64,000 nt of DNA from Janthinobacterium sp. (GTDB taxonomy: Bacteria; Pseudomonadota; Gammaproteobacteria; Burkholderiales; Burkholderiaceae_D), in assembly GCA_031431155.1 (NCBI GenBank), contig JANPCW010000204.1:2461-66460 (forward strand), given 5' to 3'. Made by a program: the position numbers and the translations under genes. Under the pieces are notes generated by a model that worked only from the letters and a program-made list of their open reading frames with translations, had not been told where the DNA came from and ran no database searches. Below are positions 16,633 through 44,800 of this stretch, in pieces; positions within the stretch are counted from its first letter, which is position 1, and every line of letters starts with the position of its first letter.

Positions 16633-16785
16633 ATGGAACTCCTGGCCCTATTGTGGTTGGCCTGTCTCGTCTGGGTGTTTGCCGCTCCCAGTGAGGGGCA
16701 TCGCCAACAGATGCTTCTGGCGTCTTGGGGGGTGTTGCTAATTCCCGTCATATTCGGTCTGCTCAAGCTGCTTTTCGGTCGGTGA
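16633..16785 (+). CDS. candidate 50-aa two-transmembrane peptide, antisense to the late operon
   Basis: Hand translation gives MELLALLWLACLVWVFAAPSEGHRQQMLLASWGVLLIPVIFGLLKLLFGR. It lies in the 200-bp gap after the giant gene and overlaps that gene's last codons. Only a poorly spaced GAGG precedes the ATG. Confidence 0.3.
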   Translation: MELLALLWLACLVWVFAAPSEGHRQQMLLASWGVLLIPVIFGLLKLLFGR

Positions 16786-19700
16786 CGGACCGCACCGCTT
16801 CATTGAATCGCCGCTGCTTGTTGGCGATCTGCTGCTCGATGAGCTTGACCGATTCCTTGCTGGCGTCCTTTGCCATCAGTTCGCGCTTGCGCTTGCGCAG
16901 TTGGCTCACGTCTCGCTCAACGGCATTGGCCATCATCACCAAGCGCGCTTCTGGGTTCTCTGTAAGGTACTCCGCAGTTGGCTCTCCTGCTTTCCTTCTG
17001 CCCTTCAATTCGGCCTCGTGCTCGTTGATGGCTTTCAGGTTGTTGTAGAAGGCGTTGGATTGGGATGATTGCTGCTCGGCGTCGCCGTAGAACCGACCCA
17101 ACAGAGGCACCTTGTACGTCGGCAAGTCTTCTCCGGTAAACGCGCTGGCAACGGTTTGTTCGGCCTTCATGGCTTCTCGTCCAACTCCGCCAGTCAACTG
17201 CCCGATCAGGTAGTCGATCTGGTCGGGCGTGGGGCTGAACAGGCCGGGCTTGTAGTGCGAGCCGCCGCTGATGTAGTTCAGCGCCTGAGAAACCATCTTG
17301 CTCGCACTGCTGGCCGTGTCCTTGGCCCTGGTGAATCCTGGCGTCGGGTTGAGCTTGTTGAAGTCCTCGCGGGCGATGGGCCTCCCAGTCCAGTCCTTGT
17401 TCTCGGACAAAGCCGCCAGCGGGTCGAGCACAGTCGGCGTGACGGTTTGAATCGACAACCCGGCATTGCCCGTGGGATTGAAGGCGTCGGCCACCATGCT
17501 TACCAGTTGGCCGATTCGCTTCGCCGGATTCCTGAACCCCGACAGGGTGAACTCGGCCGCGATCCGCCCGACCCCTGGAATGACATGCAAACCAAGAGGC
17601 ATCGGGACGGTTAGGTATTCCTTTCCGCCGATGGGCAGGATCAGGTTGCGCTCGCGCACAAAGTCAGGGGGTTCTTCGTCATCGAACCCGGCGGCGGCCA
17701 AGGCCAGGGCTTGCATCACGCCAAGCAAGGCCCCTCCAGCGATGATCTTTTTGCCCGCAGGCCCCTTGAGTGTTTTGGCAAGCCTGGCAGTTCCCTGGAC
17801 TGAGGCGTTGAAGAAGGCGTACAGAGCGCCGGCTTGAAGCCCAATCTCGCCCTTGCGATTGAAGTTCACCGTCAGGTTCTTAGCCATCGAGGCGGCACGC
17901 TGCTTGGTCATGCCCTGCTCTTTGCCGACCTTGTACGCCGCAAGTCTGACCGCGTTTTCCATCGCGGCGTTGTAGTCGCTCAACCAGTCGAACACGGCTC
18001 TGCCAAACCGGATGAACTTGCCCTCGCTGGCCTTTTTGAACTCGCGCTGAATCTCCTCGGCGCGCTCCTGACTGGTGCGAAACAAATCCCGAAATCCAGT
18101 CTGCCCGCCCTCGTTCTGAAATTCCTCCCACTCCTGCGCCCACGCCGAGACTGCTGAATTTCCAGCGCGCACGTCTCGCGCGTCAATGTAGATGCCCCGA
18201 AGCGCCGACAGCGTGTAACTCAACACCGCTGCTTGCTTGCCAGCAATCGGCGTGGTTGTCAGGTTCAACATCGCGCCCTGCAAGTCGCGCACCAGATTGA
18301 CAACGCCAAACACCGGGTTGTACTGGGTATTGATCGAGGCAAAGTACCGCGTCGCCTTGGCCGTTGTCCCAAGCACTTCACCCAACTGCGCGCCGTCCAG
18401 ATTCTTCAAGGTGCGGGCCATTCTCAAGGCCCTCGGGTCGCGCTCGTTGAACTCGACGCCACGCTGAACGATTCGCCCAGTGCCGTCAGGCGCCCTGAAC
18501 ATGATGACGTTTTCTTTTCCTTGGTAGGACATATCGAGCACGTCCACTGGGCTGCCGGTTTCCGTGCTGATGGCCGTCGTCACGCCGGGTTTGGCGATCT
18601 TCCAGAAATCCGAGTTCGGGTTCATCTTTGCAAGACCGTAGAGCGCCATGCCCACGCGGTTCTTTTCTCCGCGCACAACGGCCTTTTCCCGCTGTATGGC
18701 GATGTTGGCTAAGATGTTCACCACAGCCCGCTTGGAGCCCTTTCTTCGGCGCGTCTCAGGCCCGCGAATGGAGAAGCCCTGCCCGATGCCGGGGCCGTTC
18801 TCCATGCTCTCACGATGCAGCGGGACGTAGTGCTGGAATGCTTGCTCCATGCCGGCCACGTCATCCCTTGAAGTCAGGCCATAGTCAACCCAGGTCTGAC
18901 GGGTCTTGGCGGTGATGGCATCCACCCGAACAGCCAACGATTCATAGGCGCGCTTCGTGGCCGGGTCCAGGTTGGACAGGTAGTCAGCAGCCTCCTGCGT
19001 CTCCATGCCGGAGCCGTCGGTCACGGTCGGGTCGCGCGTCTCGATGGCGTCATTGGCTTCCTCGGCGTGCCTTGCATGCAGGTAGGCTTCAAAGTCATCC
19101 ATCTTCACGCCGCGCGTCGTCACATCTTCGATCAGTGGCCGGAGTTCCTTGTCGATGAAATCGTGCGTTCCCTTGGCCGCCCTACCGTAGTAAAGCTCCT
19201 CCTGGAGGTACACATCCAAAGCGTCCGCGATGGCCTGCCCCTGCGCAACAACGGCTTCCAAAACGCGCTTGCCGTCGATCATCTTATCCTGTAGGAAATA
19301 GATGAGGTTGTCCAGCTTGGATGGTTCTGGCGCAACCCAGGTGCCGTTTGCGCCGCCTGTCAGGCCAAGCGGCGTCTGACCGGCGGCCGGGGTGTACTGC
19401 CGATTGGTCTGGCCGGCGATCACGGCGCGGCTGTAGCGCACGCCGCTCCGCGCGTTGTCCACGATCCGCTCAAGTCTGTCCAGGCGCGCGCGCTGCATGT
19501 TTTTGCTGAACAGCGGCAGGCCCCACCGGACGTTCTCGCGCATCTTGTCGGTGATGGTGAAGCCGGGCTGCTGTCCTGGCGGCGCAATCCCGAGACGATC
19601 CCCACGGTCACGCGATTCTTTCAGCGCCACCGCTTTATCTGAATGTCCTGCGCCAGACGCCTGCCCGCTTGCGTCCTCAACATACCAAAGCCCATCAGCG

Positions 19701-22700
19701 TGGCGCTCAACACTGAACTGCATGTCTGTGTCTGCAAACGCAACGTCAGCCACCGCCCCACCCCCCAATTTCGCCAGCAGTTTGTTCACCGCTATCGGCA
19801 CAATCTTGTCGTAGAAGTCGAGCATGCCTTCGCCGCCGACTTTGAGGTCGAGGCCAGAATACTCGCCGCCGCCATCAGCAATGATCCGCGCGGCCAAGTC
19901 CTTACCGACCGTAGCCTCAAGCTCTGACTCTTTTACGTCTGTGTCGATGACGGTATCGCCATCCTTCTCTGCAAGGATGGCGTAACTACCTCCTTGTTTG
20001 CGGGCGACGAGCGTGTCAACCTGATTTATCAAAGCAAACATATCCGCAGCCTGATCGCCCGTGATGAACACCACGCCGTCATGGCCCTCTTGTGCTGCTG
20101 CGACCATGATGCGTTTGAGGGCCAGGGTGAGCCACTTGTCGGTGTGGGTGACGAATGGGGCGGCGGGCGGTCGGCGGGCGGTCTTGTTTCCGGCGTCATG
20201 TTCGCGCCGCTCCTTCTGGAGCCAGTCGCCCCGCAGGGCGGTCAATCGTTGCGCCGCCTGCTCCGGGGTCTGGTTGATGCGATCCGTCAACCGAGTGCGC
20301 TTACCATCTTCAAAGGTGGTCTGGAGCATGTCGTCAGGACCAAGTGGTCGCTCTTTCATGTCGGCGCGCATTTCGTTTCGCCCATCAAGCCACTCTTGCC
20401 CAGCAGCGCCTTCTCGCGCCAGCAGTTCGCGCACCGTTAGATTCTCGGCTGTGATTTTTGGCACCTTGCCGGTGAATGGCGTGGCAAACCCGACGGGCTT
20501 GCCGCCCGAGCCTTTCTTTTTGCTTGCCGCTTGCCAGTCGCTCTGCAACTCGATCACGCGCACATAGCTCTTGCCATCGTCCCCGATCACTACATCGCGG
20601 CGGACATGGGCAAGCACGTTGCGCTCGGCCCAGTGGCCGCCTTTGAATTTGTTTTCTGTCGTCGGCGCCGCCAGCGTCATCAATTCTTCTTTGTATTCGA
20701 TGCCGCCTGGGAGCCGCCATTTGGAAAATTTTGTTCTGTCAGGAACCAGGGTCATTGTTTCAACGGGCCGGCCTTCGGCGTCTGTGCTTGTCGTGCGGTT
20801 TTTTTCTCCGCCCTGCTCCAGCGTCACCACCTTAACCTGTACCCCATTGGCGTCCAGGTACTCGGCCACCTGTTCCTTGGTGATCCGGCCTTCCTGGAGC
20901 CCAAGCCATTCCTCGATGCCGCTCCAGGTCACTTCATCCTGCTTGATCTTTCCCTTGTTGATTAGGCTCTTGATCGCGCCCATCCAGCCCATGGCCGGCA
21001 GAGCTTTGGCTTCCAGGGTTGCAATTTCACGGGACAGGGCAGAGAAGAAGGTTGGGGCGCGCGTGCTGGCGCGCACCCTGCTGCCGCCACCTGGGGCCGC
21101 TGGGCCGCCGCCCTCAACGAACGCCCGAGCCGGGAGCAGGTAGTCGCGGATGATTTCAGCGTCACTCAGGCCCATCGACAGGCCTGGGATGTTCTCGCGC
21201 AGCCACGTCCTGATGGCGGCCACGGCGCGGCGCACCCAGCCCAGCGTGGGTTCGTTCTGCGCCATGTAGGCAAGCAATTCCTCGGCGGCCTCGCGCCGGC
21301 CGTCCAGGGTGTCGTAGTCGATCTTCAGGCGCGCAGCAGCAGCCTTGACCTTGGCCCCGTTCATGGCGATCAGTCCGTCCAGCACCGCATTGAGCCCGGC
21401 GCCGAACACGCCGCGCAGGCCGAAGTGCCCGAGGGTTTCGTGCATCACCACACGGCGCACGGCGCGGGCGTCTGGCAACCTGTCGGCAACCAGATAGACC
21501 GTGCCGTTATCGAACAACCCCTCAACCGACCCGCCCGAGTCAGAGGCCATGGCTCCGCCGCGCAAGTTGGCAGGCAACTCGCTTGCGGTGGAAACCACGA
21601 CGATCTTGGGGCCGTTCTTCCACTTGGACTTGATCTGCGCCGCGACCATGGACGCCATGCCGACGTTGGGCGTGTTGGTCCGGCCTGCCTTGCGACTGGC
21701 TGCTGGCGGGTTGGAGCCGTCGTTCCTGGCCGCCGGGCCGTCGTCCTTCTTGTTCGGGTCTTTCAACTCGACCAGCGGCTTTGTCTCGAAAATGCGATCC
21801 AGCACCTTCCAGCCGTCGGGGCCGACGGGGACGAACAGGCGCTCCGCCCATGCGATGCGCTCCTTGATGACGCCGTATGACACCAGTTCGCGCTGCGACG
21901 CCTCGTAGATCGTCCGGCCATTGCCGCCGATTTCGATGCGCAGTTCGTCCGACACCTTGGCGCGCGCCAGCTTCCAGCCGTTCGCCAGTTCGGCAACTTC
22001 GCCACGGAGAATCCGGCGCATCACTTCGGAAGTCTCGATCTTTGGCGCTGAGATATTCAGGCGCTTCTTGATGTCGTCAACGTCCTTCGGGTGGATGATC
22101 TTGCCCAGCAGGCGTCGTCCGTCCACGGTGTTCGTGCGCGCGACTTGAATGGTGCCGTCCGTTTCCAAGCGGTCCCAGATCGGCAGCATCGCGCCCACGA
22201 TCATGTGCAGCTTCTCGGTGAAAGTCGGCGGACGGGCCTGGGTTTCCTTGTCCCAAAGCGCTTCGGCTTCCTCTGGTGTGGCGGCGCGGTACTTGCCGTT
22301 CTTCACCCAGCGCCCACCGGAGATTTCCTCAAATTCCTCGCGCACTTTGATCGTGGTGCCGCCGGTCCCCAGCATGCGATAACGGTCGCTGATGCTGCCG
22401 TTCTTGTTCGTGATGGTGCCGCTCTTGACCTTGGCCCAGATACGACCGCTCTTGACGTTCACCACCCACTCAATGGGGGCGCCCTGCGTCTTTTCGCTCG
22501 GAAGGCTATAGAACCTATTGGGCTGCGTGACTTCCAACTCGACATAGGTGGTTTCGGCGCCGGTCCTTGGGTCGGTGTGGATTACTTCCTCTTGCGTCAC
22601 CTTGGTTTCGATGGCCTTGATGGTCTGCATCCCGGTGTCGAGTTCTCCACGGGAGCGCGCGACCTCCACCTTTTCCTCGATGCGAGACATGAAAGCGGCG

Positions 22701-25700
22701 AACACCAATTCCTGCATTTCCAAGCCCATCGACAGCAGGCGGTTCAAAAATTGCCGCGTCGGCGGGTACTTGGACTCGGCAATGTTTCCGGTGTTCGGAT
22801 CAACAATGTCTTCCAGGCCCATCTGTTCGAGGAAGTCCACAAACGACACCCCAACCACCTGCCCGCGCTTGATGTCGTCCACCAGTTGGCGGGTGGCCTG
22901 GGTCGCGTACTTGGACTCTAGGTTGTCGGACTCGTTGAACAGGCCGCCGCTGGACGTGTCACGTTGGCCCTTGGTCAAGGCTCCAAGTTGATCCAATCGA
23001 CGCGCGATAGCCGAAAGAAACCGCTTGTGGGCGGGTATGTCGGTTGATGCCAGCTTGTAGTGCGGCTCCGATGCTTGGTTGGTCCGGTGCGACCGGCCCA
23101 TACCCTGGACCGCCTTGTTGGCCCTCCATCCAGGCTGGATCAGGTAGTGCTGGCGCTTGCGCTGGTTTTTCTGCGTGCGGTCGGCGTGGAAGGAGTAGCC
23201 CGTCCCGCCGGCATCGGAGTACACGATGATGCGTTTCTTGTCCGCCATGAAGGCTTCCGCGTCGGCCTTGGCAGCAGAGGCGCCGCGCTGCTCAATCTGA
23301 GCCTTGATGTCGCCGTTCTTGTCTGGCTTGCGCACAACGCGCTGCTTGCGGCCGGTAACTTCGGCCGTGATGTCCGGCCCAAAGTGGTTCAAGATGATTT
23401 CAAGCGGGCCGTCAGGAACACGGATTTCGCGCAAGTCTTTAAGCAACTGCTCGCGCATCTTCACGGCTTCCTTGTTCAGCATCGGCGTGCCATCGGCGTT
23501 CATAACCGGCACGGATATTCTGTTGCCTTCTGGGTCCACGTCATCCTCGTACTGAATGACGGGGAAGGCCTTGGCAACCATTTCCAGCAGTTGATCGCGC
23601 GGCGTCAGGTCCAAGTCCTCCAGGTCGTCAGACTCGTCATCCTCTGCGCGCTTCGCAAGCGCCCGCTCCTGCTGGGCTTCGTTGGTGTTGACCAGTTGCA
23701 GAAGCACCGCGTCGCCTGCTTTCAGGTCTTGCTCGACGGCATCAATGATCGTCGGCATCTGCATGCTGGTGATGATCTGGTTGAAGAACCGTTGCTGGGC
23801 TCCCCAGTAGGCCGACTTCATGTTGGCCTTGGCGCGGTTCGGTTTCTTCTCTCCGTTCGGCCCTGCGGCGTCGGTCGTTGACATAGCCTCGTTCATCCGG
23901 CGAAGCGTGAGTTGCCACGCCTCCGCCAGTTTGTTGTAGATGTCACGCTGGAGAGGGGTCAACTTATGCTCAACCTCGGCGCGCGAGTAGGTCACGCCGT
24001 CGAAGGACAGGCTGCGGGCGATGTATGCGCCCATCTGCTTCATGTCGCGGGCAACAAGCTCCATGGTCGCAAGGCCGCCGGCCACCATCTTCTCGACAAA
24101 GCTATGGACGCTTGGGAACGGCGTGCCCATTCCCCACAACCCAAGGCGGGTCGCAAAGGACAGGTTGGACACTTCCGTCGCGCCGGTCGCAGACACATAG
24201 ACCACGCGGGCCTTGGGCAGTTGCTTTTGAAGCTCCACCACCGCCATAGCCTGGGCGGACGGCTGTGAAGCTCCGCGCTCGCCCTTGATGGCGATGGCGT
24301 TGCCGGCGTTGTGCGCTTCATCGAAGGCGATCACGCCATCGAAGTCTTTGCCGAGCCAATTGACAAGCTGGTCAAGCCTGGATTGTCCTTTGGCGACAAC
24401 GCTCATCCCGTGGATGGCGGCGCCTGTCCTCTGCGATTTAGCCGCGCTGCGCAGCGTCGAATAGGTTGTGAAAATGATGCCGTTTTTCGCGTCGATCTTG
24501 CCTTCGGCGCCGGTCTTGTTCTGATTGAAGATGATCGACTCGTCGCCACCGACTCCTTTGAAGTCGCGCTTTGCGTCGTTCATCAGGCCTTGCTTCTCAG
24601 AAACCCAAACGTGCTTCTTGCGGCCTTGGCGCAGGTTGTCCAGGAGGATGCCGCCGATCATTCTCCCTTTGCCGGTGTTGTGAGTGACGATCAGATCGTC
24701 GGTCAGGTACAGGTGCTGGTCATGCGCAACTGAAATGCACTGGCACTCGCGCTCGCCAATGGGCTCGACCGAGCGAAGGATTCGCTGCGGCGAGTATTTT
24801 TCCCAGGATGCGCGCACTCTGGTCGCCTTGCGCCCAAGCGAGAACGGGTTGACGCCGGACGGAAGTTTCACATAGACAACGTGGCAGTCCCTGTGCGTGG
24901 TTTTCTTAATGGAGCGCGTGGCCACGCCGCCCAGTGATCGGCACAGAAACACCACATCGTCGGCGAGTCGCGCAGAAATGGTGTAGTAAATCGCCGAGCC
25001 GTTGTGTTTGGCGGCATGCCCGTCGGTGTCCATCAGACCGCGCAGGATGGCCAGGCGTGTCTCGACTGAGTTGATCTTGTAGTCGTCGGGGATGAACTTA
25101 TCAGCGGCCCCCGCTCCGGCAAGTCCGAGGTTACGCAGGGCAACCAACAGCGGGTTCGATTGTCGGTCCATACCGGACCACTGGCGCCCGCCGGCTTTAA
25201 CGATGTCGTAGTGGTAATCGCGCGAAACAACCTTGCGAGCCATCAGACCGTGCGGCAGAGCAGCCTCCACCATTTCAACCATCTCTGGCTCGGCGCACAC
25301 CAGTTGCGCAGACGACTGCCGCAGGCATCCATCGCCAAGCAACACCCCCAGCAGCCACGGATTGATGCTCACCGGCTTCTTGGGAAATTGCACCGGAGCC
25401 ACCAAAGGAATGGAATGTAATTTACGAACATCGGTCGCCAGCATGTCGGTGGTCCTCAGCTTCGGAGGCCCGTATGTCACGCCCCTTCCTTGCTTCTGGA
25501 AACTGCGCTCCTGGCGCGTTTGCGTCAGCCACAGGTGCTCGCCGCTGGCCTCCGTGCTGGAGCCATCTGAGAACGTCAGCTTGTAAGTTGAAAGGACGCC
25601 CTGCGGGAATACGCCGGTCACTCGCGTTGGCGTTCCATCGACCGCGATTACCTCGTCGCCTTCGACCAAATCCCCCATGGTGCGCCAACCGGTGGGCGTG

Positions 25701-28700
25701 AGCACCTTGGCGGTCAACGGCTGCGGGCCGGTTCCATCGCCGATGAAGAATCCGCGCCGCGCCTCCACCAAATTGGAATCTCGCGGCAGCAGTTGCTCAT
25801 GGGCCTGCCCGGCATAGACCACGGCCTCAATCTGCGCCAGCGACAGCAGGCCGTCGGTGATGGTCTTTTTCGGCAGGTTCGGCGTGTAGGTTGGGGCCGG
25901 CGGCAGCACCGACGCCATGGCGGCGGATTGCACCAACGCGCCAGGATGCGGCTTGGCCCCTTCGACCTGCAAGCGCTGCGGCGTGTAGCCCTCGAAGATC
26001 GAGTCGGTCAGTTCCCCGGCCTGGGTCGTTTCCGATCCGACATTTACGCCGGTTGCGCCCCCGGCGGTATCAGGTCCACTACCAGCGTCAGGATCGCTCT
26101 GCCCGCCTCCTCCAGGCTTTTCGCTGTCTCGATTTCCGCGCTTTCCAGGTTGCGGTAAACGTCCTCCGGGTCGTCCCCCTCCACCTCCGCCACCGCCGCC
26201 TCCACGGCCTCCGCCCACACCGGGTCGGCCGCCAGGTTCTCCAGCGCCCACTCCAGCAGTTGGACCAGTATCAATCGGCCCGGCTGGACCGTCAGGTGTT
26301 GCTGCGTCATCAGGCGCATCACGTTCTGACTCAGCATCGTCGCGTTCAAGCTGGTCACGGTCGTTGGTTGCGCCTTTTGCATTTGGTCGGTCATTGCGGA
26401 CTCCTTCGAGTAGTGCGATCAGTTCTGTGTAGTCAGAAACTCCGGTTGTGATTGGCTTTGCCCCATCTTTCGGAGGGGCCACTTTGTCAATGACGATCAG
26501 GACGTTGTTGAACGTGGTTCCGTACTTGGCATATCCACTCCCGTCCACCGGGATCACCGCCCGAACGTGGTGCTTGGCGGCGATCCTTGCCCACCATTCA
26601 CGGAAGGCTGGCTTGCCCCACTCCATGCCCTCGCCAGAGATTGCGACAAGGCGCCCTCCATCCACCAGACTGCTGAGCCCTTGCTCAATGTGCTTGGCGC
26701 CGATGGCCGAGTTGTTTTTCAGATTGTTGGCGGCGGCCGAGAACGGTGGGTTCATCACCACCACTGTTGGCTGCGCGCTGTCGGGCAGGAAGTTGCTGAT
26801 GTGCTCGGCGTTTTCGTGATAGACCGTGGCGCCTGGGAACAGGTCTTGCAGCACAGCGGCGCGGCGGCTCGACAGTTCGTTCAAGATCAGCTTGGCGCCA
26901 GCGTTCTTGGCGAACACGGTCAGGCCACCAATGCCGGCCGATGGCTCCAGCATCGTGTCTGCGCTGGTGACGTTGGCGGCCCAGTTGGCGATGAACGCAA
27001 ACGGCGGCACCGTGCTGAACTGCTGGAACTTGTCCATTTCCTCCGTGCGCTTGGTCTGCGTCGGCAGCAGGGCGGTGATCTTCTTGAGCGACTCCACGGC
27101 CAGGATTGCGCTGGCTCGGTCGGTGTTCGGGTTGAACGTGATGCCATTGCGCATCAGGTGCAGGTTGACGCCCGCCTCCATGGCGTCGTAGGCGTCCTTC
27201 GGGGTGTACTTGCCCTCGGCCTGGGTGCCGCCGAAAGCCTCGTCCGCCTCCTCGAACAGCGCCCTCCAGTCGAACGCCAGCCCTTTCTCTAGGATGCCCT
27301 GCACGCGCTTGGCAAGCGTCATCGAGGCGCTTGACTTGGCTCCAAGCTGCGCCGTCAGGCCCTCGTCCTTTGCAAAGCGGATGGCGTATTCCTTGATGCC
27401 ATCACCGAACTGCTCGATCAGGAACTTGAACAACTCCTTGAGAGTCTTCCCGGCATCCTGGAACGCCTTGAGCGCTGCGGAAAAGTGGGGCTTGGCCTCT
27501 TTGTAGGCGTCCTCGTCAAAGCCGCCCGGAAACGAGTTCAACCGCCCCGGCTTGCTGCCGAACAGTTTGGCAAGCCCGGTGAGCGCTTCATTGATGCCGG
27601 TCACGCCAAGCTGCGCCGCCTGACCAATCAGGTTAGCAGCCGTCGGGTTCTCGCGCGCCAGCTTCTCAGGCGTCCACGCTCCCGAGTCGGCTTTGGGTGC
27701 TGGCTCCGGTGGTGCATCCGGGGTTTCCTGCTCCGATTCCGAAAGTTCGGCCGCCGCTTCGTCAAACAGGTTTTCCAGGTCGGTGTCGGTCAGGTCGCCG
27801 GATGGCTCTGCCGGCGCGTCCACTATCGGCGGCGCAAGTTCGGCCTCTTTTTCTTCCGCAAGGCGGTCCAGTTCCTCCTGCTCGGCCCTGGTCTTGGCTT
27901 CGGCTTCTTGGGCGCGTCGCGCAATTTCCTCTTGATAGAAAACTCGCATGTTCTCCGGGTCGGACAGGTCTTTCATGCGACGCTGGCCGTCCTGGATTTC
28001 TTCGGGAAGGTTCTTCTCGAAAGCCTCTCTGCTGACGGTCGGCTTCCCGTCCTTCCATGTGATGGACTTGAACAGAGTGGCGTACAGCTTGTTGAACAGC
28101 GCGCGCTCAGTGCCGGTGGGGTACGGGGTGCCTCGGAAGCCCTTGGCCTTTGTCACGTTGCCTTCGCCCACCCAGGCCGCGTTGACAAGGTAGTCGCTCC
28201 TGAATCCCAGCGTGTCGGCCACCCACGCCTCGCCCGCCCTGGCGAACAACTCCTTGTCGTTGCCCCAGTATTTCTTGCCCAGAATGTCGGCATTTTGTTT
28301 ATAGGCCGTGGATTTGTCGGAGAACCCGCGCGTCATGGCGTAGGTGGCATGATTCACCTTGTCTTTCCTGTCGCCCAGGTGCGTCCAATAGGTTCCACCG
28401 AACAGGAAATCCATGGCGCGCTTTTCTACGGCATCGACCGTGGGCGCCTGTTGTTTCAGGTAGCGCAGGAACATGCCGCGAACGGTGGCCCAGTCGCCCC
28501 CCATCATGTCGTCTATGGCGTGGTGCCACTCATGCGCCAGCGTGCCGTCGCCCTTGGTGTTGGTGACGTTGATGGCCTTCACCGGGCCGTTGGGGCTTGG
28601 GTGGGCTGGGTGGAATGTCGCCGCAAACTTGCCGCGCCCCAGGGCGCCAATAAGGAAGTGCATCTTCCCGCCAAAGCCAATCCCACTCAACGATGCTCCG

Positions 28701-31700
28701 ACGTGGCTCGCCAGATCGACAAAAGCGTCGTGCGAATAGTTCAGGTGGTCCTGGTCCTCTTTGGCCTTGACATAGGTGCCGAAGCCGATGTCGGCAAACG
28801 AGAAGCGTGTTTTTACACCCTCCGGGGTAACGTCTTTGCCTTCTCGAAGTTCTGGTCCATCGCGCACAACGATGTCCAAGCGCGGCGGGATCATCTGCGC
28901 GTTGCGCGTCGGCAGGGCGATGGTTTTCTCGTTCTCGATCAGGTGTTTTGTCCACTCTGATTTGGAGCGAAGCTGCTGGAAGTCTCTGTCCACTGGCCGC
29001 CAGATTTTGCTGTTGACAACCGCCAAGCCCTTGTCGTTCAACAAGCTGCTGTAGAAGCGTTGTTCGGCGTCGTGCTCTTTTTCTTTTGCCGCATCGACGT
29101 AGCGTTCATCGAATTGCTCGGCGGCCTCTTTCACGGATGACTTGCCTTGCGCAAACTCGATCAGCGCACGAACCTTGCCGACGTACTCGGCGGCCACGTC
29201 CTGGAGCCACTTGATGCGATAGGCGGAGTCAGATTGGAACTTGTCGCGGTCCTCTGATGTCAGGTTGCCTGGATACCTGTCGCCCTCAAGCATGTAGTCG
29301 GTGTTGCTCTTGTCGCTATTCCTCCACGCGGAATTTCCCAGCCAAAAATACGACTTGTCCAGCCATTCCTTGAAGGTTTCGGTGTTGCCGCGAATGTGCT
29401 CAATGTAGAGCCGGAAGCCTGGGCTCACGCCATCCGGGAGCAATGGCTCGAACAGGCTGGCCCGCGCAGTGGCGCGCTCGATCTGCGCCCATGCTGTGGT
29501 CGCGTCGCTCTCGTCGGCTTTCATCTGGTCGCGCAACTGCTCGTACCAGCGGCGAAGATCGACCCCGGTGTTCTCCAGCTTGTTGACTGGCACCCCTTCG
29601 TACCACGCATTGCCTTCGGTGGTTTTCATCCAGCGGCGGCCGGCTTTGTACCCAAGCATGCGCGATGGCATTTCGCCGCCGTGCATCGTGCTCTTGGTCT
29701 TGCCTCTGAGCGCGTGGTCCCACCCAGACGTGAATGCCACTTGCTGCTCGGGCGTCAGCACCGGGTCGATGCCCTTCATGGCGTCGTCGATGGCGCCCTG
29801 GCGGACTTCGGGCTTGCGGTGTTTCTGTTTTTCCAATTCGGCCTGCTTCACCTTGATCTTCTGTTCTGCGACTTTGACGAGGCGCTGAATCTGGAACGGC
29901 GCCAGCTTCGTGTCGCCAAGCAACTCCGTGACGCGGGCGATCAGTTCCTCGCGCGACTTTCCAACCATGTCTGGGTCGTTCGCCAGCGCGTTGAAAACTT
30001 CCGACTGCTTGATGCGCTTGGCCTTGGGCGTGTTGTCCTCTGCGGCCGGTGGCTTGGGTGTCGGCGGCGCTGGCTGGGTCTTGCTTGGCTCTGCCTTTTT
30101 CGGCGACCGCACCTTTCCTTGGATCACTGGGTCAAGCTCGTCCCATGGCGTGTTTGAGAACTGGCGGATTTGGTCGCCATCAACATAACCGGCATCGCGC
30201 AGCATCTTGGCTCGCACTGGCACTGCGGCTGCATCCCATCCGTCTTTGGTGGCGTCTTTCCCGGCAGGCTCCTTGGGCGGCTTTTGCGGCTCCGCTATCG
30301 TTCCTCCGCCACCAGTTCCGGTTGGTGGCGGCGGAGTCCCCGGCTTTGTCCATGGCATCATTCCGGCCCCTGGCGGATCGTCCTCGGTCCCCGGCTCGGT
30401 TTTGTCTTTGGGTGGCATGGCGGCCCCGCCGGCCGACGTAGATTCGCCGCCAATGGTTCCGCCGCCTTGTGCAGGTGGTGCTACCGGGCCGCTGCCTGAG
30501 ACACCAGTTCCACCCGCCGTTCCTGCGCCTGGCGTTTGCGGTCCCGCGCCAGGAGCATTGCCGCCACCTGGATTTCCAAGTCCTCCGGTGGGGGTGGGTG
30601 CTTGTCCGGGTGGCTGTTGCGCTTGGCCTTGCTGGGCTTCTGTTTTTTTACCATGTGCATCGCCCTTCGTTGTCGGAATGATGTTTTTTGCGACCGATGA
30701 CGGGCCTACAATAGGCGTCGCGGGTGGCGTTGATGCGTCACCCGCGACTGGCACATCATTACTGGTTGGAGTAACAGCATGCTTACTGTCAAGTGTAGTT
30801 GGTGCGGCGCCGCCGTCACTAGGCACCCGTCCCTCATTCTGAGGGCGCCCAACGTCTTCTGCTGTCGTCGATGTTCTGGACTGCACAGGGCTTCTGCCAC
30901 GCCCATCGTCAACAAAACCAGCGGCGCCTTTTATCCCTGCGTTCGTTGTGGCAAGGCCGTCTATAGGCAAGTCTGCCGAATGAAGACCCTCAAGGAGGGC
31001 AGGGTGTTTTGCGGCCACGCTTGCTACCAAGCGCATGATCGAGGAGGAGGCATCAACTCCGATGGTTACCGCGTTATCACCGTCGCCCCGTACACCACCA
31101 AAATCGAGCATCGATGGATCATGGAACAGCATCTCGGGCGTGAGCTTTTGGCGACTGAGCACGTTCACCACATCAACAGGGATAAGCTTGATAACCGCCT
31201 TGAGAACCTCGTCGTTCTTTCCGATAGCGAGCATATGTCGCTTCACAGAAGACACCGCCTCACTATCGATGACATCAAACCCTTTGTTTCCTGTGGTCGT
31301 ACTTCCACCGAAATCGCTGTTGCCTTCGGGGTTGACCGATCCACCGTCACTCGCTTGCTTCACTCCAATGGACTGATTGCCAGTCGAATCAGTCGGCAAT
31401 AAAGCGGTCGGCAGCAGTCCTGCTGCGATCTTGGAAATCGGGCCGACAACGGGGATGCCATTCCCAACGGGCGGCATCGGGCCAAGCTGCGGCCCATTGT
31501 TGTATCCCATCGCGCCAGCCGAAAGCGGCGGGGCGGGCGGCGGGATGACGGTGTTGGTCGCTGCCGTGATGGGGCCTGAGGGCGGCGGGATGGCGGCGAA
31601 GCCACCACCGAGAACGGCCCCAGCCAGAGCGCCCTCGGTCACGGCGCGAGCCATGCCCTCGGTGATTGGTTTGCCTTCGGCCCAGTTCTTCGCCGCCGAT

Positions 31701-32494
31701 TCGATGGCAGATTGCGGGCCTTCCTCGAACAAAGCCTCGCTCACCATGCCGCTTGGCACCCGCTTGTAAATCGGCGGGGCAACGGCGCCTGCTGTACGCG
31801 CACCACCGGCAATCGCCACGTCTGGGTCCAGGAATCCGAAGCGTTGCGCGATGCGGCCGCCGCCATAGCCAACGACGCCGCCAAGCGCTCCGGCGCCAAG
31901 CGATGCGAGGGCGGCCCTTTGCGGGTCCACGGCCGGGTCGATTTCCTTCATGGACCCGCCGGCAATGATGGAGCCTTCGCCAATCGCCGCGCGGGCTGGG
32001 CCTGATGCTATTCCGCCAATGACCCCCAGGGCACGGCCAGCCAACCCACCCGCAAACATTGGCGCGATTGAGCGCGCCACGGTCATGGCGGTGGCGCGTG
32101 GATTGTCGATGTATGCACGCGCCACGTCCCAGGCTGTAGTGTTTGGGTCTTTCCAGGCTGTATCAACGGCTCCTTGCTGGGCCTGCGTCTCGGTAGAAAG
32201 TTGCGCGTTTGTTTCGTCTTCCCACTTGCCGGGCTGAAACCCGGTGGCCGTGCCAACCCGGTCGGCCAAGCGGCTGATTGGACGGTCGAACCCAGCAAGA
32301 CCAAGCGGTATGTCCGCCACGCCCGTCAGTAGTCCGGGGATGCTTTGCACACCCTGCTTGAGCCCAGCCCCCAGGTCTTGCGTCAGTGTGCGTCGCGGCG
32401 CAAGTGTTGCCGTATCTGAATCGACGGCGACGCCGCCAAATTCATCGGTCCCGCCATCTACAAGTTCACCGCCAAATTGGTCTTTTGCCATCAT
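16763..32494 (-). CDS. giant polyvalent virion/ejection protein (5,243 aa): N6-adenine DNA methyltransferase, Sbno/SNF2-type helicase, two HExxH metallopeptidase-like modules and a C-terminal membrane-associated module
   Basis: The ORF is uninterrupted and its ATG overlaps the upstream stop (ATGA at 32491-32494). Motifs are located in the sub-features below. The hydrophobic segment IIAGGALLGVMQALALAAAGF lies near 17690-17760. The gene sits where podoviruses encode internal or ejection proteins. Confidence 0.85.
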   Translation of the reverse strand: MMAKDQFGGELVDGGTDEFGGVAVDSDTATLAPRRTLTQDLGAGLKQGVQSIPGLLTGVADIPLGLAGFDRPISRLADRVGTATGFQPGKWEDETNAQLSTETQAQQGAVDTAWKDPNTTAWDVARAYIDNPRATAMTVARSIAPMFAGGLAGRALGVIGGIASGPARAAIGEGSIIAGGSMKEIDPAVDPQRAALASLGAGALGGVVGYGGGRIAQRFGFLDPDVAIAGGARTAGAVAPPIYKRVPSGMVSEALFEEGPQSAIESAAKNWAEGKPITEGMARAVTEGALAGAVLGGGFAAIPPPSGPITAATNTVIPPPAPPLSAGAMGYNNGPQLGPMPPVGNGIPVVGPISKIAAGLLPTALLPTDSTGNQSIGVKQASDGGSVNPEGNSDFGGSTTTGNKGFDVIDSEAVSSVKRHMLAIGKNDEVLKAVIKLIPVDVVNVLSRQKLTPEMLFHDPSMLDFGGVRGDGDNAVTIGVDASSSIMRLVASVAAKHPALLEGLHSADLPIDGLATTNAGIKGAAGFVDDGRGRSPVQSRTSTTAEDVGRPQNEGRVPSDGGAAPTTLDSKHAVTPTSNDVPVAGDASTPPATPIVGPSSVAKNIIPTTKGDAHGKKTEAQQGQAQQPPGQAPTPTGGLGNPGGGNAPGAGPQTPGAGTAGGTGVSGSGPVAPPAQGGGTIGGESTSAGGAAMPPKDKTEPGTEDDPPGAGMMPWTKPGTPPPPTGTGGGGTIAEPQKPPKEPAGKDATKDGWDAAAVPVRAKMLRDAGYVDGDQIRQFSNTPWDELDPVIQGKVRSPKKAEPSKTQPAPPTPKPPAAEDNTPKAKRIKQSEVFNALANDPDMVGKSREELIARVTELLGDTKLAPFQIQRLVKVAEQKIKVKQAELEKQKHRKPEVRQGAIDDAMKGIDPVLTPEQQVAFTSGWDHALRGKTKSTMHGGEMPSRMLGYKAGRRWMKTTEGNAWYEGVPVNKLENTGVDLRRWYEQLRDQMKADESDATTAWAQIERATARASLFEPLLPDGVSPGFRLYIEHIRGNTETFKEWLDKSYFWLGNSAWRNSDKSNTDYMLEGDRYPGNLTSEDRDKFQSDSAYRIKWLQDVAAEYVGKVRALIEFAQGKSSVKEAAEQFDERYVDAAKEKEHDAEQRFYSSLLNDKGLAVVNSKIWRPVDRDFQQLRSKSEWTKHLIENEKTIALPTRNAQMIPPRLDIVVRDGPELREGKDVTPEGVKTRFSFADIGFGTYVKAKEDQDHLNYSHDAFVDLASHVGASLSGIGFGGKMHFLIGALGRGKFAATFHPAHPSPNGPVKAINVTNTKGDGTLAHEWHHAIDDMMGGDWATVRGMFLRYLKQQAPTVDAVEKRAMDFLFGGTYWTHLGDRKDKVNHATYAMTRGFSDKSTAYKQNADILGKKYWGNDKELFARAGEAWVADTLGFRSDYLVNAAWVGEGNVTKAKGFRGTPYPTGTERALFNKLYATLFKSITWKDGKPTVSREAFEKNLPEEIQDGQRRMKDLSDPENMRVFYQEEIARRAQEAEAKTRAEQEELDRLAEEKEAELAPPIVDAPAEPSGDLTDTDLENLFDEAAAELSESEQETPDAPPEPAPKADSGAWTPEKLARENPTAANLIGQAAQLGVTGINEALTGLAKLFGSKPGRLNSFPGGFDEDAYKEAKPHFSAALKAFQDAGKTLKELFKFLIEQFGDGIKEYAIRFAKDEGLTAQLGAKSSASMTLAKRVQGILEKGLAFDWRALFEEADEAFGGTQAEGKYTPKDAYDAMEAGVNLHLMRNGITFNPNTDRASAILAVESLKKITALLPTQTKRTEEMDKFQQFSTVPPFAFIANWAANVTSADTMLEPSAGIGGLTVFAKNAGAKLILNELSSRRAAVLQDLFPGATVYHENAEHISNFLPDSAQPTVVVMNPPFSAAANNLKNNSAIGAKHIEQGLSSLVDGGRLVAISGEGMEWGKPAFREWWARIAAKHHVRAVIPVDGSGYAKYGTTFNNVLIVIDKVAPPKDGAKPITTGVSDYTELIALLEGVRNDRPNAKGATNDRDQLERDDAESERDAPDDAATPDGPAGPIDTGPTAGVGAGEPGGRPGVGGGRGGGGGGGGGGRPGGRLPQPGKRGNRDSEKPGGGGQSDPDAGSGPDTAGGATGVNVGSETTQAGELTDSIFEGYTPQRLQVEGAKPHPGALVQSAAMASVLPPAPTYTPNLPKKTITDGLLSLAQIEAVVYAGQAHEQLLPRDSNLVEARRGFFIGDGTGPQPLTAKVLTPTGWRTMGDLVEGDEVIAVDGTPTRVTGVFPQGVLSTYKLTFSDGSSTEASGEHLWLTQTRQERSFQKQGRGVTYGPPKLRTTDMLATDVRKLHSIPLVAPVQFPKKPVSINPWLLGVLLGDGCLRQSSAQLVCAEPEMVEMVEAALPHGLMARKVVSRDYHYDIVKAGGRQWSGMDRQSNPLLVALRNLGLAGAGAADKFIPDDYKINSVETRLAILRGLMDTDGHAAKHNGSAIYYTISARLADDVVFLCRSLGGVATRSIKKTTHRDCHVVYVKLPSGVNPFSLGRKATRVRASWEKYSPQRILRSVEPIGERECQCISVAHDQHLYLTDDLIVTHNTGKGRMIGGILLDNLRQGRKKHVWVSEKQGLMNDAKRDFKGVGGDESIIFNQNKTGAEGKIDAKNGIIFTTYSTLRSAAKSQRTGAAIHGMSVVAKGQSRLDQLVNWLGKDFDGVIAFDEAHNAGNAIAIKGERGASQPSAQAMAVVELQKQLPKARVVYVSATGATEVSNLSFATRLGLWGMGTPFPSVHSFVEKMVAGGLATMELVARDMKQMGAYIARSLSFDGVTYSRAEVEHKLTPLQRDIYNKLAEAWQLTLRRMNEAMSTTDAAGPNGEKKPNRAKANMKSAYWGAQQRFFNQIITSMQMPTIIDAVEQDLKAGDAVLLQLVNTNEAQQERALAKRAEDDESDDLEDLDLTPRDQLLEMVAKAFPVIQYEDDVDPEGNRISVPVMNADGTPMLNKEAVKMREQLLKDLREIRVPDGPLEIILNHFGPDITAEVTGRKQRVVRKPDKNGDIKAQIEQRGASAAKADAEAFMADKKRIIVYSDAGGTGYSFHADRTQKNQRKRQHYLIQPGWRANKAVQGMGRSHRTNQASEPHYKLASTDIPAHKRFLSAIARRLDQLGALTKGQRDTSSGGLFNESDNLESKYATQATRQLVDDIKRGQVVGVSFVDFLEQMGLEDIVDPNTGNIAESKYPPTRQFLNRLLSMGLEMQELVFAAFMSRIEEKVEVARSRGELDTGMQTIKAIETKVTQEEVIHTDPRTGAETTYVELEVTQPNRFYSLPSEKTQGAPIEWVVNVKSGRIWAKVKSGTITNKNGSISDRYRMLGTGGTTIKVREEFEEISGGRWVKNGKYRAATPEEAEALWDKETQARPPTFTEKLHMIVGAMLPIWDRLETDGTIQVARTNTVDGRRLLGKIIHPKDVDDIKKRLNISAPKIETSEVMRRILRGEVAELANGWKLARAKVSDELRIEIGGNGRTIYEASQRELVSYGVIKERIAWAERLFVPVGPDGWKVLDRIFETKPLVELKDPNKKDDGPAARNDGSNPPAASRKAGRTNTPNVGMASMVAAQIKSKWKNGPKIVVVSTASELPANLRGGAMASDSGGSVEGLFDNGTVYLVADRLPDARAVRRVVMHETLGHFGLRGVFGAGLNAVLDGLIAMNGAKVKAAAARLKIDYDTLDGRREAAEELLAYMAQNEPTLGWVRRAVAAIRTWLRENIPGLSMGLSDAEIIRDYLLPARAFVEGGGPAAPGGGSRVRASTRAPTFFSALSREIATLEAKALPAMGWMGAIKSLINKGKIKQDEVTWSGIEEWLGLQEGRITKEQVAEYLDANGVQVKVVTLEQGGEKNRTTSTDAEGRPVETMTLVPDRTKFSKWRLPGGIEYKEELMTLAAPTTENKFKGGHWAERNVLAHVRRDVVIGDDGKSYVRVIELQSDWQAASKKKGSGGKPVGFATPFTGKVPKITAENLTVRELLAREGAAGQEWLDGRNEMRADMKERPLGPDDMLQTTFEDGKRTRLTDRINQTPEQAAQRLTALRGDWLQKERREHDAGNKTARRPPAAPFVTHTDKWLTLALKRIMVAAAQEGHDGVVFITGDQAADMFALINQVDTLVARKQGGSYAILAEKDGDTVIDTDVKESELEATVGKDLAARIIADGGGEYSGLDLKVGGEGMLDFYDKIVPIAVNKLLAKLGGGAVADVAFADTDMQFSVERHADGLWYVEDASGQASGAGHSDKAVALKESRDRGDRLGIAPPGQQPGFTITDKMRENVRWGLPLFSKNMQRARLDRLERIVDNARSGVRYSRAVIAGQTNRQYTPAAGQTPLGLTGGANGTWVAPEPSKLDNLIYFLQDKMIDGKRVLEAVVAQGQAIADALDVYLQEELYYGRAAKGTHDFIDKELRPLIEDVTTRGVKMDDFEAYLHARHAEEANDAIETRDPTVTDGSGMETQEAADYLSNLDPATKRAYESLAVRVDAITAKTRQTWVDYGLTSRDDVAGMEQAFQHYVPLHRESMENGPGIGQGFSIRGPETRRRKGSKRAVVNILANIAIQREKAVVRGEKNRVGMALYGLAKMNPNSDFWKIAKPGVTTAISTETGSPVDVLDMSYQGKENVIMFRAPDGTGRIVQRGVEFNERDPRALRMARTLKNLDGAQLGEVLGTTAKATRYFASINTQYNPVFGVVNLVRDLQGAMLNLTTTPIAGKQAAVLSYTLSALRGIYIDARDVRAGNSAVSAWAQEWEEFQNEGGQTGFRDLFRTSQERAEEIQREFKKASEGKFIRFGRAVFDWLSDYNAAMENAVRLAAYKVGKEQGMTKQRAASMAKNLTVNFNRKGEIGLQAGALYAFFNASVQGTARLAKTLKGPAGKKIIAGGALLGVMQALALAAAGFDDEEPPDFVRERNLILPIGGKEYLTVPMPLGLHVIPGVGRIAAEFTLSGFRNPAKRIGQLVSMVADAFNPTGNAGLSIQTVTPTVLDPLAALSENKDWTGRPIAREDFNKLNPTPGFTRAKDTASSASKMVSQALNYISGGSHYKPGLFSPTPDQIDYLIGQLTGGVGREAMKAEQTVASAFTGEDLPTYKVPLLGRFYGDAEQQSSQSNAFYNNLKAINEHEAELKGRRKAGEPTAEYLTENPEARLVMMANAVERDVSQLRKRKRELMAKDASKESVKLIEQQIANKQRRFNEAVRSVTDRKAA
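21425..21442 (-). other. HExxH motif 2 (HETLGH, aa 3685-3690) of the giant protein
   Basis: The context VRRVVMHETLGHFGLRGVFG resembles a SprT/ArdC-type metallopeptidase. Confidence 0.55.
23050..25860 (-). other. Strawberry-notch/SNF2-like superfamily-2 helicase domain of the giant protein (interrupted by an intein)
   Basis: The P-loop GFFIGDGTG|TGKGR is split at 24677-25726. DEAH lies at 24311-24322. C-terminal helicase motifs are YSDAGGTGYSFHAD and QGMGRSHRTNQ (about 23080-23250). Confidence 0.75.
24677..25726 (-). mobile_element. intein (350 aa) with a LAGLIDADG homing endonuclease, inserted in the helicase P-loop
   Basis: It spans P2257 to N2606. It ends in VTHN followed by a +1 Thr. LAGLIDADG motifs are LLGVLLGDGCL and LRGLMDTDGH. 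Block B is GEHLW and block F is ECQCISV. Removing it restores GDGTGTGKGR. Confidence 0.8.
26480..27040 (-). other. N6-adenine DNA methyltransferase domain of the giant protein
   Basis: Motif I is LEPSAGIGGL (about 26924-26947). Motif IV is NPPF (26741-26752, aa 1915-1918). Confidence 0.75.
28520..28534 (-). other. HExxH motif 1 (HEWHH, aa 1321-1325) of the giant protein
   Basis: The context GDGTLAHEWHHAIDDMMGG resembles the zincin-like modules of large polyvalent proteins. Confidence 0.5.
30779..31402 (+). CDS. HNH homing endonuclease (207 aa) encoded antisense within the giant ORF
   Basis: A GGAG at 30768-30771 lies 7 nt before the ATG. The N-terminus has two Cys4-type zinc-finger pairs. 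The HNH_3 core is GYRVITV...EHRWIMEQHLGRELLATEHVHHINRDKLDNRLENLVVLSDSEHMSLH. The C-terminal HTH is TSTEIAVAFGVDRSTVTRLL. Confidence 0.85.
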   Translation: MLTVKCSWCGAAVTRHPSLILRAPNVFCCRRCSGLHRASATPIVNKTSGAFYPCVRCGKAVYRQVCRMKTLKEGRVFCGHACYQAHDRGGGINSDGYRVITVAPYTTKIEHRWIMEQHLGRELLATEHVHHINRDKLDNRLENLVVLSDSEHMSLHRRHRLTIDDIKPFVSCGRTSTEIAVAFGVDRSTVTRLLHSNGLIASRISRQ

Positions 32495-43204: not shown

Positions 43205-44800
43205 TCATGCGGCCAATCTCATGTCCAGTTTCCAGTCTTCGTACCTGCGCATGATCGCAAGAAACACGCCGTTTGGCGAGATATTTTGCTGACACAGCGC
43301 GGCGCCGGTTTCGGCGTCTTCGTGGCAGAACTCCTTGCCGTAGTGCAGACGGTGGCACGGGTAGCAGTTCGTGCCCTGCGGCTCCATGACATCGGTGAGC
43401 TTCCAGTGCTTGGTCAAGTTTTCATGCGACGAGTGCGAGAGCATGATGACCTTGGGCACGGGCTCGAACGCCACGGAATTGAGAATCCCGGTTTCAGGTC
43501 CGACCACCAGATCAACCTGCTGGGCCAGCGTCAGGGAGTCGCGGATGCCCACTTCGCCAGAGGTACACATGATGCGCTCGGTTTCTTCCCAGCCGGCCTC
43601 AAGAATCTTGCACGGCTCGTCGCCGTTGAGAATCAGCAAAAGCTCCGGGATGTTGTCGAGCAGGCCCTGGATCACCGTGTCCTGGTGCGGATAGAACTTG
43701 TGGACGGATGACCCGGCAAGGCACCACAGCACGTTGAAGCGCTCCTTCGCCCTCATGGGGATGGGCAGGCCCGTGGCGAGCCGATTGCGGGCCGCACTGA
43801 GCATGGCGGCGGCTTTCTTCTTTTCCTCTGGGCTCGGGAAGAAGCGGGCTTCCTCGCTGTAGGGCAACTCGGCAAGCCGCGCCGTCCACTCCAGGTAGTT
43901 CTTGTTCAATTCCACCTTGCGCACGGAATGGGGCCAGCCGTGATTGGTCCTGCCGGGGAAGGCCAGCAGGGTTCCCTCGACCGACTCACTCAGGTTGATG
44001 AAGCGGTCAAAGCGCTTGGCCTGGGACGCCCAGAACAGCGGCAACTCATGGTTTGGAACCTGGTCCTCGTCTTGCAGCATGAACTCATCAATGTGCGGAT
44101 CGTGCTTGAGGATTTCGTGGCCCCTGGGCGTGGTCATAAAGACAACAAAATATCCCTGGCGCTTGAGTTCCGGCAGGATGCCGGCGGCCTGAATGGAATC
44201 GCCGAACCCGCCGTAGCGCACCACGCACGCGCTCTTGGCCGGGCGCACGCGCGGCGCCATGACCTGAAACCCGCTATCGTTCTTTTGGAACACCTGGAGG
44301 AAGCTGTACTCGCGGTCCTGGTCGCGCACTTCCTCGACCAGCAAAGTCCATGAGCCGATGTCGCTCATGGCGTCCAGGATGTCATCTTCGGTGAAGTCGT
44401 GAACGTGATCCGGGTTGGCGCCGAGCCTGCCGATGTTGGGGTACAGGTTGCGGTGGGGCAGGTACAAGACCAAGTGCCCGCCGACCTTGAGGCAGCGCCA
44501 CCAGTCTCTCAGGGCGGCATTGTGGTCAACGATATGCTCCAGCAAGTGGCTGCTGAACACGAAGTCCACCGATGCGTCCTTGACGCAATCGCTCAGATCG
44601 GCGGCGTCCTTGCAGACGACATCGGGCTTCATCTTGATGCCAAAAAGCTCGGTGTCCTTTTGGCTGTCGATGCCCAGGAAATGCGGGAAGGCCTTTTTTG
44701 GGCCGCAGCCAACATCGAGCCCGACGCCGCGCGTGTACTGAACGATGTCGTACTTGCACTTGTCGGCCTCATTGCCCTGGGGATCATCAAGCCGCCACAT
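43205..44800 (-). CDS. class I SAM-dependent methyltransferase fused to a GT9 (heptosyltransferase-like) glycosyltransferase
   Basis: The N-terminal part has GLDVGCGPKK, VDFVFSSHLLEHI and LKVGGHLVLYLP (Methyltransf_11-like). The C-terminal part has ACVVRYGGFGDSIQAAGILPELKRQG ... VVGPETGILNSVA (GT9 pattern). A Cys/His-rich tail follows. Confidence 0.7.
   Translation of the reverse strand: MWRLDDPQGNEADKCKYDIVQYTRGVGLDVGCGPKKAFPHFLGIDSQKDTELFGIKMKPDVVCKDAADLSDCVKDASVDFVFSSHLLEHIVDHNAALRDWWRCLKVGGHLVLYLPHRNLYPNIGRLGANPDHVHDFTEDDILDAMSDIGSWTLLVEEVRDQDREYSFLQVFQKNDSGFQVMAPRVRPAKSACVVRYGGFGDSIQAAGILPELKRQGYFVVFMTTPRGHEILKHDPHIDEFMLQDEDQVPNHELPLFWASQAKRFDRFINLSESVEGTLLAFPGRTNHGWPHSVRKVELNKNYLEWTARLAELPYSEEARFFPSPEEKKKAAAMLSAARNRLATGLPIPMRAKERFNVLWCLAGSSVHKFYPHQDTVIQGLLDNIPELLLILNGDEPCKILEAGWEETERIMCTSGEVGIRDSLTLAQQVDLVVGPETGILNSVAFEPVPKVIMLSHSSHENLTKHWKLTDVMEPQGTNCYPCHRLHYGKEFCHEDAETGAALCQQNISPNGVFLAIMRRYEDWKLDMRLAA

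Follow-up and report, generated by a model that had tools for sequence, protein, structure and literature searches.

The 64,000-nucleotide stretch of Janthinobacterium sp. DNA analysed here (contig JANPCW010000204.1; the whole stretch is called the window, and all coordinates refer to it) carries an insert of 350 codons that interrupts the Walker A sequence, or motif I, of a strawberry-notch (DarB-like) helicase domain. We conclude that this insert, referred to below as the helicase intein, is very probably a full-length class 3 intein in which a HINT splicing domain is combined with a LAGLIDADG homing endonuclease. Class 3 inteins have been well described since 2010 and are now numerous; the distinctive trait of the helicase intein is its site, which was previously unseen. 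This site, G/TGKGR (a slash marks an intein-extein junction or point of insertion throughout), adds a third insertion point within the strawberry-notch P-loop, beside GDG/T, which is used by inteins of the class 1 type, and GKGR/T, which is used by class 3 inteins. The understanding of the splicing mechanism is unchanged by this example and its practical value is modest, although the Gly-Pro scissile bond of this class 3 intein may interest engineers who want small residues to be tolerated at position -1.

Splicing signature and likeness to known inteins

The open reading frame (ORF) translation places the insert on the minus strand, in frame and exactly at 24677-25726, where it forms residues 2257-2606 of a 5243-residue host protein (16763..32494; features are collected in Table 1). 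Translated from 24647-25756 (minus strand), the region reads RGFFIGDGTG/PQPLTAKVLTPTGW...ASGEHLWLT...WLLGVLLGDGCL...LAILRGLMDTDGHA...ECQCISVAHDQHLYLTDDLIVTHN/TGKGRMIGGI. An initial annotation, made from the letters alone, had described a 350-residue insert that begins with Pro, contains two LAGLIDADG motifs and ends in THN followed by Thr at +1, and each of these statements about the sequence is correct. The insert is matched by Pfam LAGLIDADG_3 (E=5.5e-8), with Hom_end also reported, and the acidic residues of the two motifs, in LGDG (D132) and MDTDG (D233, D235), are kept and fall in invariant columns of the family alignment. By this evidence the insert holds a LAGLIDADG homing endonuclease domain, which we predict to be active.

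Inteins of class 3 are marked by a first residue that is not a nucleophile, together with Trp at B:12, Cys at F:4 and Thr at G:5, as set out by Tori et al. in 2010 (PMC2807308). For comparison with this description, we used the 118 complete sequences among the top 120 phmmer matches and 79 loci from GTDB species genomes. Residue 1 of the helicase intein is Pro rather than Cys, Ser or Thr, and it stands in register with Ala1 of the solved Msm DnaBi1 and MchDnaB1 inteins. Two residues past the block B His (His64) is Trp66, and neither varies in 120/120 database homologues, including two partial ones, or in 79/79 genome loci. Position 4 of block F is Cys330, invariant in 118/118 and 79/79, and block G ends in Thr348-His349-Asn350, likewise invariant in both sets. 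At +1 the helicase intein has Thr, as do 111 of the complete homologues, the other 7 having Ser. The positions of the Trp-Cys-Thr (WCT) triplet and of THN are invariant columns in the family alignment. This invariance, together with the alignment to solved structures, supports the triplet that had been proposed from GEHLW, ECQCISV and the Thr before HN, and Cys330 is proposed as the branch-forming nucleophile by analogy. Its neighbor Cys328 is not invariant across the family.

Comparison with characterized inteins points in the same direction. The best sequence matches among solved structures are two class 3 inteins, MchDnaB1 (6rix/6riy, E=3e-11) and Msm DnaBi1 (6bs8). Against MchDnaB1, GEHLW aligns with AAHQW, ECQCISV with VRCVEV, which contains the catalytic Cys, and VTHN with PTHN. 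Blocks A, B, F and G of both inteins align residue by residue with ours, and both are inserted in a helicase P-loop. They differ in being mini-inteins without an endonuclease, with Ala1, in the classic DnaB site GK/S or GK/T of bacterial chromosomal genes. An AlphaFold2 model of the helicase intein, built from a 57-sequence alignment, has a mean predicted local distance difference test score (pLDDT) of 91.3 and a predicted TM-score (pTM) of 0.91. The HINT domains of the two mini-inteins match this model with TM-scores of 0.77-0.81 (whole-chain, normalized to the target; 0.81 for MchDnaB1 in Foldseek) and with root-mean-square deviations of 1.6-2.1 Å over 94 locally aligned columns. The top Foldseek matches are the intein-endonucleases PI-SceI, TliVMA and PI-PfuI, with probability 1.00. 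As modelled, then, the insert has the HINT fold and is a PI-SceI-like intein-endonuclease. With PI-SceI and the VMA type it shares the combined HINT and LAGLIDADG architecture (E=1.6e-19, TM-score about 0.6-0.7) and sequence similarity in the endonuclease domain, whereas these inteins belong to class 1 (Cys1, Asp-type block F), are 13-19% identical and reside in another host protein.

The Snf2 intein of Deinococcus radiodurans resembles ours in being a class 3 intein within a Snf2-type helicase, and Brace et al. reportedly detected its block F branched intermediate in 2010. This characterized intein was one of two class 3 members that the initial annotation had named, and both were named correctly; the other, in a phage DnaB, is the prototype of the class and itself has Pro1 (PMC2807308). 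By its published description, this intein from mycobacteriophage Bethlehem (MP-Be DnaB) agrees with the helicase intein in Pro1, Thr+1, Ser B:7, His B:10 and Trp B:12, in Cys F:4 with an aromatic residue ten positions later, in the Thr-His-Asn end, in the embedded LAGLIDADG endonuclease, in its phage helicase host and nearly in length (341 versus 350 residues), differing in that the host is DnaB, not strawberry-notch, and that Gln, not Gly, occupies -1 (PMC2807308). Splicing of MP-Be DnaB absolutely requires the block F Cys, and class 3 inteins are found mostly in the P-loops of helicase-like proteins, SNF2 included (PMC2807308).

The family to which the helicase intein belongs is large. A phmmer search of 5.8 billion proteins returned 478 matches at E<=1e-5, the best with E=4e-83; a single peptide pattern retrieved at least 548 loci from GTDB species genomes, and relatives are present in 815 phage records. 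The earlier description of class 3 inteins as a small group does not survive these counts. None of the loci in the GTDB species genome scan exceeded 46% identity, and a Megablast comparison with PLSDB plasmids and GenBank phages gave no match for the region and hence no near relative there. Homologues carry public names such as "LAGLIDADG family homing endonuclease", "PhoH" and "DarB-like antirestriction".

Several points weigh against the class 3 reading. First, splicing through Cys330, with a branch on that residue, is inferred by homology. Second, a class 1 intein that was given only the W, C and T residues did not splice productively, so that the triplet alone is insufficient (PMC7664689). 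Third, standard splicing-domain models barely score: TIGR01443 (NCBIfam intein_Cterm) reaches 14.1 bits, under its cut-off of 15.6, and Pfam recognizes only the endonuclease part. Fourth, no relative exceeds 54% identity, and purifying selection on this copy is therefore not measurable. Fifth, Gly-1 and Pro1 are unlike the residues of nearly all relatives, which have Lys or Arg at -1 and Ala or Ser at 1; the chemistry at this atypical G/TGKGR junction is accordingly putative. Finally, Met at position +6 of the C-extein occurs in 0/247 intein-less homologues (E in 144, Q in 95), and it may be a sign that the helicase has adapted or decayed. The failure of the standard models has a practical side, because annotation pipelines would label the region as a homing endonuclease or break the 4893-residue helicase-methyltransferase protein in two at its ATP-binding loop.

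The strongest competitor is a decayed intein, dead for splicing or capable of cleavage only, in which case the helicase would stay divided or inactive for good, with the insert at most a point of self-cleavage in a polyvalent protein. The atypical junction and the unusual Met+6 would fit such an element, the searches yielded no relative at the same site as a sign of its evolutionary upkeep, and class 3 inteins are prone to N-terminal cleavage in vitro (PMC7664689). Set against this are the intact state of six catalytic or signature residues and of both LAGLIDADG motifs, and the reappearance of the Gly-1/Pro1 junction at other sites in two other members of the family (P0299 and P0379), which suggests from sequence that the combination is workable. 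A dead P-loop would moreover be expected to lead to decay, whereas the flanking domains score like those of intein-less proteins (AAA_34, 5.6e-115; Helicase_C_4, 6e-80) and the 15.7-kb host ORF, in which the intein lies in frame, is free of stops and frameshifts. We consider this alternative quite unlikely. The GC content of the intein is 0.606, and at third codon positions (GC3) 0.737, compared with 0.611 and 0.735 for the host gene; comparison of these values revealed no compositional sign of recent acquisition. Because the long frame is intact, the flanking helicase domains are strong, the acidic residues of the endonuclease are conserved and GC and GC3 equal those of the host, this copy is likely to be still functional, maintained and not decaying.

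A class 2 (KlbA-like) route, in which Thr+1 itself would attack the N-terminal junction, with no block F branch, shares with our reading the absence of an N-terminal nucleophile. It is very improbable, given that class 2 inteins have no WCT triplet and the known ones are archaeal KlbA inteins with Ala1 (PMC2807308), whereas in the helicase intein the triplet is complete and the closest relatives of solved structure belong to class 3; in addition, the +1 residue is reported to be no substitute for the block F Cys in tested class 3 inteins (PMC5222942).

Boundaries of the insert and the restored P-loop

The assignment of Pro as residue 1 depends on the placement of the boundaries. Excision of the insert in silico yields GDGTGTGKGR and a single unbroken AAA_34 match that covers the whole profile (1-306/306, 383.9 bits, E=5.6e-115). 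Without splicing, the profile breaks between positions 70 and 71, exactly at the proposed junction, with 1-70 on the N-extein side and 71-306 on the C-extein side. Intein-less homologues (n=247 database proteins) have a loop of constant length, D-G-x-G-x-GKGR, and the same length is found in 28/28 related IMG/VR phage loci, all without an insert. The nearest intein-less homologue (P0187, locus L001) is 77% identical in the best local BLASTP alignment, which covers 37% of the spliced query. The empty site in this locus reads …GGCGATGGAACCGGC/GTGGGCAAGGGGCGT…, and its DNA aligns with the spliced DNA without a gap over the junction, GDGTG^VGKGR (the caret marks the empty site) against GDGTG/TGKGR. 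Homologous inteins start with Ala or Ser followed by Q-P-L, aligned with P-Q-P-L of the helicase intein. The break of the AAA_34 profile, the constant loop length, the register of the homologue starts and the ungapped alignment together support the proposed boundary. The claim that excision restores a canonical Walker A thus stands as to the length of the loop; it needs to be qualified as to its composition, since few intein-less homologues have Thr at +1 (of 247, V 158, A 71, T 5, S 3).

It is hardly credible that the insert is a class 1 intein with a mis-set boundary whose true first residue is a nearby nucleophile, for instance the Thr of GDG/TGPQPL: this Thr does sit two residues upstream of our start, and inteins of the class 1 type do occur at GDG/TGVGKGR in homologous helicases (P0142, P0293, P0372), yet such a start would leave GDGTGKGR, two residues under the constant-length loop, and would break the full-length AAA_34 match, while the relatives all begin in register with P-Q-P-L straight after the extein, block F has Cys instead of Asp, the W and T positions are invariant and the GDG/T inteins have a different block F (DFYDMYV). 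The initial annotation had named a canonical nucleophile a few residues away as a finding that would overturn its boundary, and the shortened loop disposes of this one.

Two further features were seen at the junctions. The hexanucleotide ACCGGC (Thr-Gly) is present on both flanks of the intein, at 24671-24676 and 25727-25732. A target-site duplication was considered and rejected, in that removal of one copy would make the P-loop two residues short relative to the constant-length consensus; the repeat probably arises by chance from the required Thr+1 and common codons. Positions +1 to +8 of the C-extein (24653-24676, minus strand) read TGKGRMIG, compared with VGKGREIS in the closest intein-less homologue, and are followed by about 30 identical residues. 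Adaptation to the intein could account for these differences after the junction, as could a co-conversion tract or drift.

Insertion site, relatives and a proposed splicing route

Nearly all relatives of the helicase intein follow a basic residue, either at GxGK/T, the "classic" P-loop insertion site (PMC5050341), or at YMRGR/T in PhoH, and start with Ala or Ser. The nearest relatives (P0328, P0241 and P0262), which came from an exhaustive HMMER search that used the whole precursor region, are 52-54% identical over 350 residues and are found in the same strawberry-notch family of other giant proteins. These inteins, at GKGR/T, share the WCT, THN and Thr+1 signature and the same endonuclease, and their exteins are 40-50% identical to our host protein. 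They differ in being sited five residues downstream, with Arg-1 and Ala1 or Ser1, so that in the helicase intein GKGR comes after the intein. An intein at GKGR/T is likewise present in a Saprospiraceae metagenome-assembled genome (locus L002). The third site, GDG/TG, lies two residues upstream of G/TGKGR and is occupied by the class-1-type inteins of P0142, P0293 and P0372 mentioned above, which end in VNHN; a chimeric assembly or a split intein could be among them.

We searched for a second instance of the G/TGKGR site. The pattern THN/TGKGR, which misses alleles with Ser+1 or an altered block G, gave 3 matches in IMG/VR and 56 in JGI metagenomes, none of them valid, and the top 150 representatives of the protein search contained no further instance of the site. 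As candidate same-site alleles, all of the pattern matches except one were rejected as arising by chance or out of frame. The exception (L162) was rejected as well, being an unrelated class-3-like intein that is followed by TGKGS in a different host.

Three proteins (P0299, P0379 and P0386) each contain two or three related inteins of class 3. One intein in each of the first two has Gly-1/Pro1, while Ala1 or Ser1 accompanies Lys or Arg at -1. This pattern hints, at the level of sequence, that residue 1 covaries with the residue at -1.

One may go further and suppose that the helicase intein is a site-shifted derivative of the GKGR/T clade, which moved five residues upstream and exchanged Arg-1/Ala1 for Gly-1/Pro1, and that Cys330 and Cys328 form a redox toggle that delays an anti-restriction helicase delivered by the virion. 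In Msm DnaBi1 the catalytic Cys has been shown to act as a redox toggle (PMC6195587). This combined proposal is doubtful; if the site shift were true, it would provide a natural case in which a class 3 intein was retargeted inside one motif together with its endonuclease.

For the class 3 intein itself, a splicing route may be proposed by homology to the MP-Be DnaB, Deinococcus radiodurans Snf2, Msm DnaBi1 and MchDnaB1 inteins, from which all of the chemical steps are inferred. The thiol of Cys330 (F:4), positioned with His64, Trp66 and Thr348, would attack the Gly2256-Pro2257 bond, and the 2256-residue N-extein would thereby be transferred to Cys330 as a thioester branch. The N-extein would then be handed on to the side-chain oxygen of Thr+1, cyclization of Asn350 would free the intein, and an O-to-N acyl shift would produce a Gly-Thr peptide bond, giving a 4893-residue protein with an intact GDGTGTGKGR loop. 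Once freed, the intein could act as a homing endonuclease against intein-less alleles of co-infecting relatives. The retention of the LAGLIDADG acidic residues and the sporadic distribution of the insert, which related phages lack, fit a mobile homing element.

Host protein and a second intein in the terminase gene

The host protein carries the marks of a strawberry notch / DarB-like helicase, namely the AAA_34 match described above after in-silico splicing, a Helicase_C_4 domain (E=6.4e-80) and a GxGKGR P-loop; DEAH-type (AFDEAHN) and SATGA stretches are present in its translation. LPD1 adjoins an HEWHH motif and LPD38 is C-terminal. Because LPD1, LPD38, an NPPF methyltransferase motif and the helicase are combined in one protein, we read the host as a polyvalent protein similar to phage P1 DarB, with a predicted length of 4893 residues after splicing. 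In P1, DarB is packaged into the virion and acts against restriction (PMC11437467). Giant relatives of the host protein, 2000-6400 residues long, are common among the top matches of the representative protein search. In the literature collection that was searched, nothing links "intein" with "strawberry notch", and "polyvalent protein" and "DarB" gave nothing relevant.

Table 1. Features of the helicase intein, its host gene and other parts of the window
Feature	Position in window	Strand	Basis
Helicase intein, probable class 3, 350 aa; HINT splicing domain split by LAGLIDADG homing endonuclease domain	24677..25726	-	phmmer, AF2 (AlphaFold2), Foldseek, family hidden Markov model (HMM)
Pro1, non-nucleophilic first intein residue; scissile bond Gly2256-Pro2257	25724..25726	-	register with Ala1/Ser1 of homologues
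Block B, ASGEHLWLT; Ser61 (B:7), His64 (B:10), Trp66 (B:12, W of WCT)	25523..25549	-	alignment
LAGLIDADG motif 1, WLLGVLLGDGCL, residues 124-135; G131-D132-G133 invariant in family	25322..25357	-	alignment
LAGLIDADG motif 2, LAILRGLMDTDGHA, residues 225-238; D233, D235, G236 invariant	25013..25054	-	alignment, Pfam
Block F, ECQCISVAHDQHLYL; Cys330 (F:4) at 24737-24739	24704..24748	-	alignment
Block G, LIVTHN; Thr348 (G:5), His349, Asn350	24677..24694	-	alignment
Thr+1, host Thr2607, first C-extein residue, putative second nucleophile	24674..24676	-	translation
N-extein half of P-loop, GDGTG	25727..25741	-	AAA_34 profile, homologue loops
C-extein half of P-loop, TGKGR	24662..24676	-	AAA_34 profile, homologue loops
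Strawberry-notch-type helicase ATPase domain (Pfam AAA_34), intein-interrupted	23930..25951	-	Pfam
Helicase_C_4, C-terminal domain of strawberry notch helicases, same host protein	22625..23404	-	Pfam, E=6.4e-80
Host gene, 5243-aa polyvalent protein (LPD1, NPPF methyltransferase motif, Sbno helicase, LPD38), in phage structural module	16763..32494	-	ORF, Pfam
NPPF methyltransferase motif of host protein	26741-26752	-	translation
531-aa ORF with N-terminal S-adenosylmethionine (SAM)-dependent methyltransferase domain (Methyltransf_11), among head/connector genes	43205-44800	-	Pfam
Second class-3-type intein, 333 aa, in terminase large subunit	54062-55060 in ORF 52703..55414	-	family HMM, PHROG

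The neighboring genes are phage structural genes, encoding a terminase large subunit, an SU10-type portal, a major head protein, a head-closure protein and a tail protein. When the window was scanned in six frames, the family HMM matched only the host ORF (7.9e-129) and one other, the terminase large subunit, where a second intein of the class 3 type reads LWAREHYK/MLRTDEPVPTPSGW…GADHLWDV…PMSCIQVERPDGLYLAGRQMVTTHN/STIITFAG. It has Met1, H-x-W, a block F Cys, THN, Ser+1 and a LAGLIDADG_3 domain, lies at the classic Walker A K/S site and shares 31% identity with the helicase intein. Once spliced, the protein matches the terminase PHROG through the junction. One phage thus carries two class 3 inteins, each in a different P-loop ATPase.

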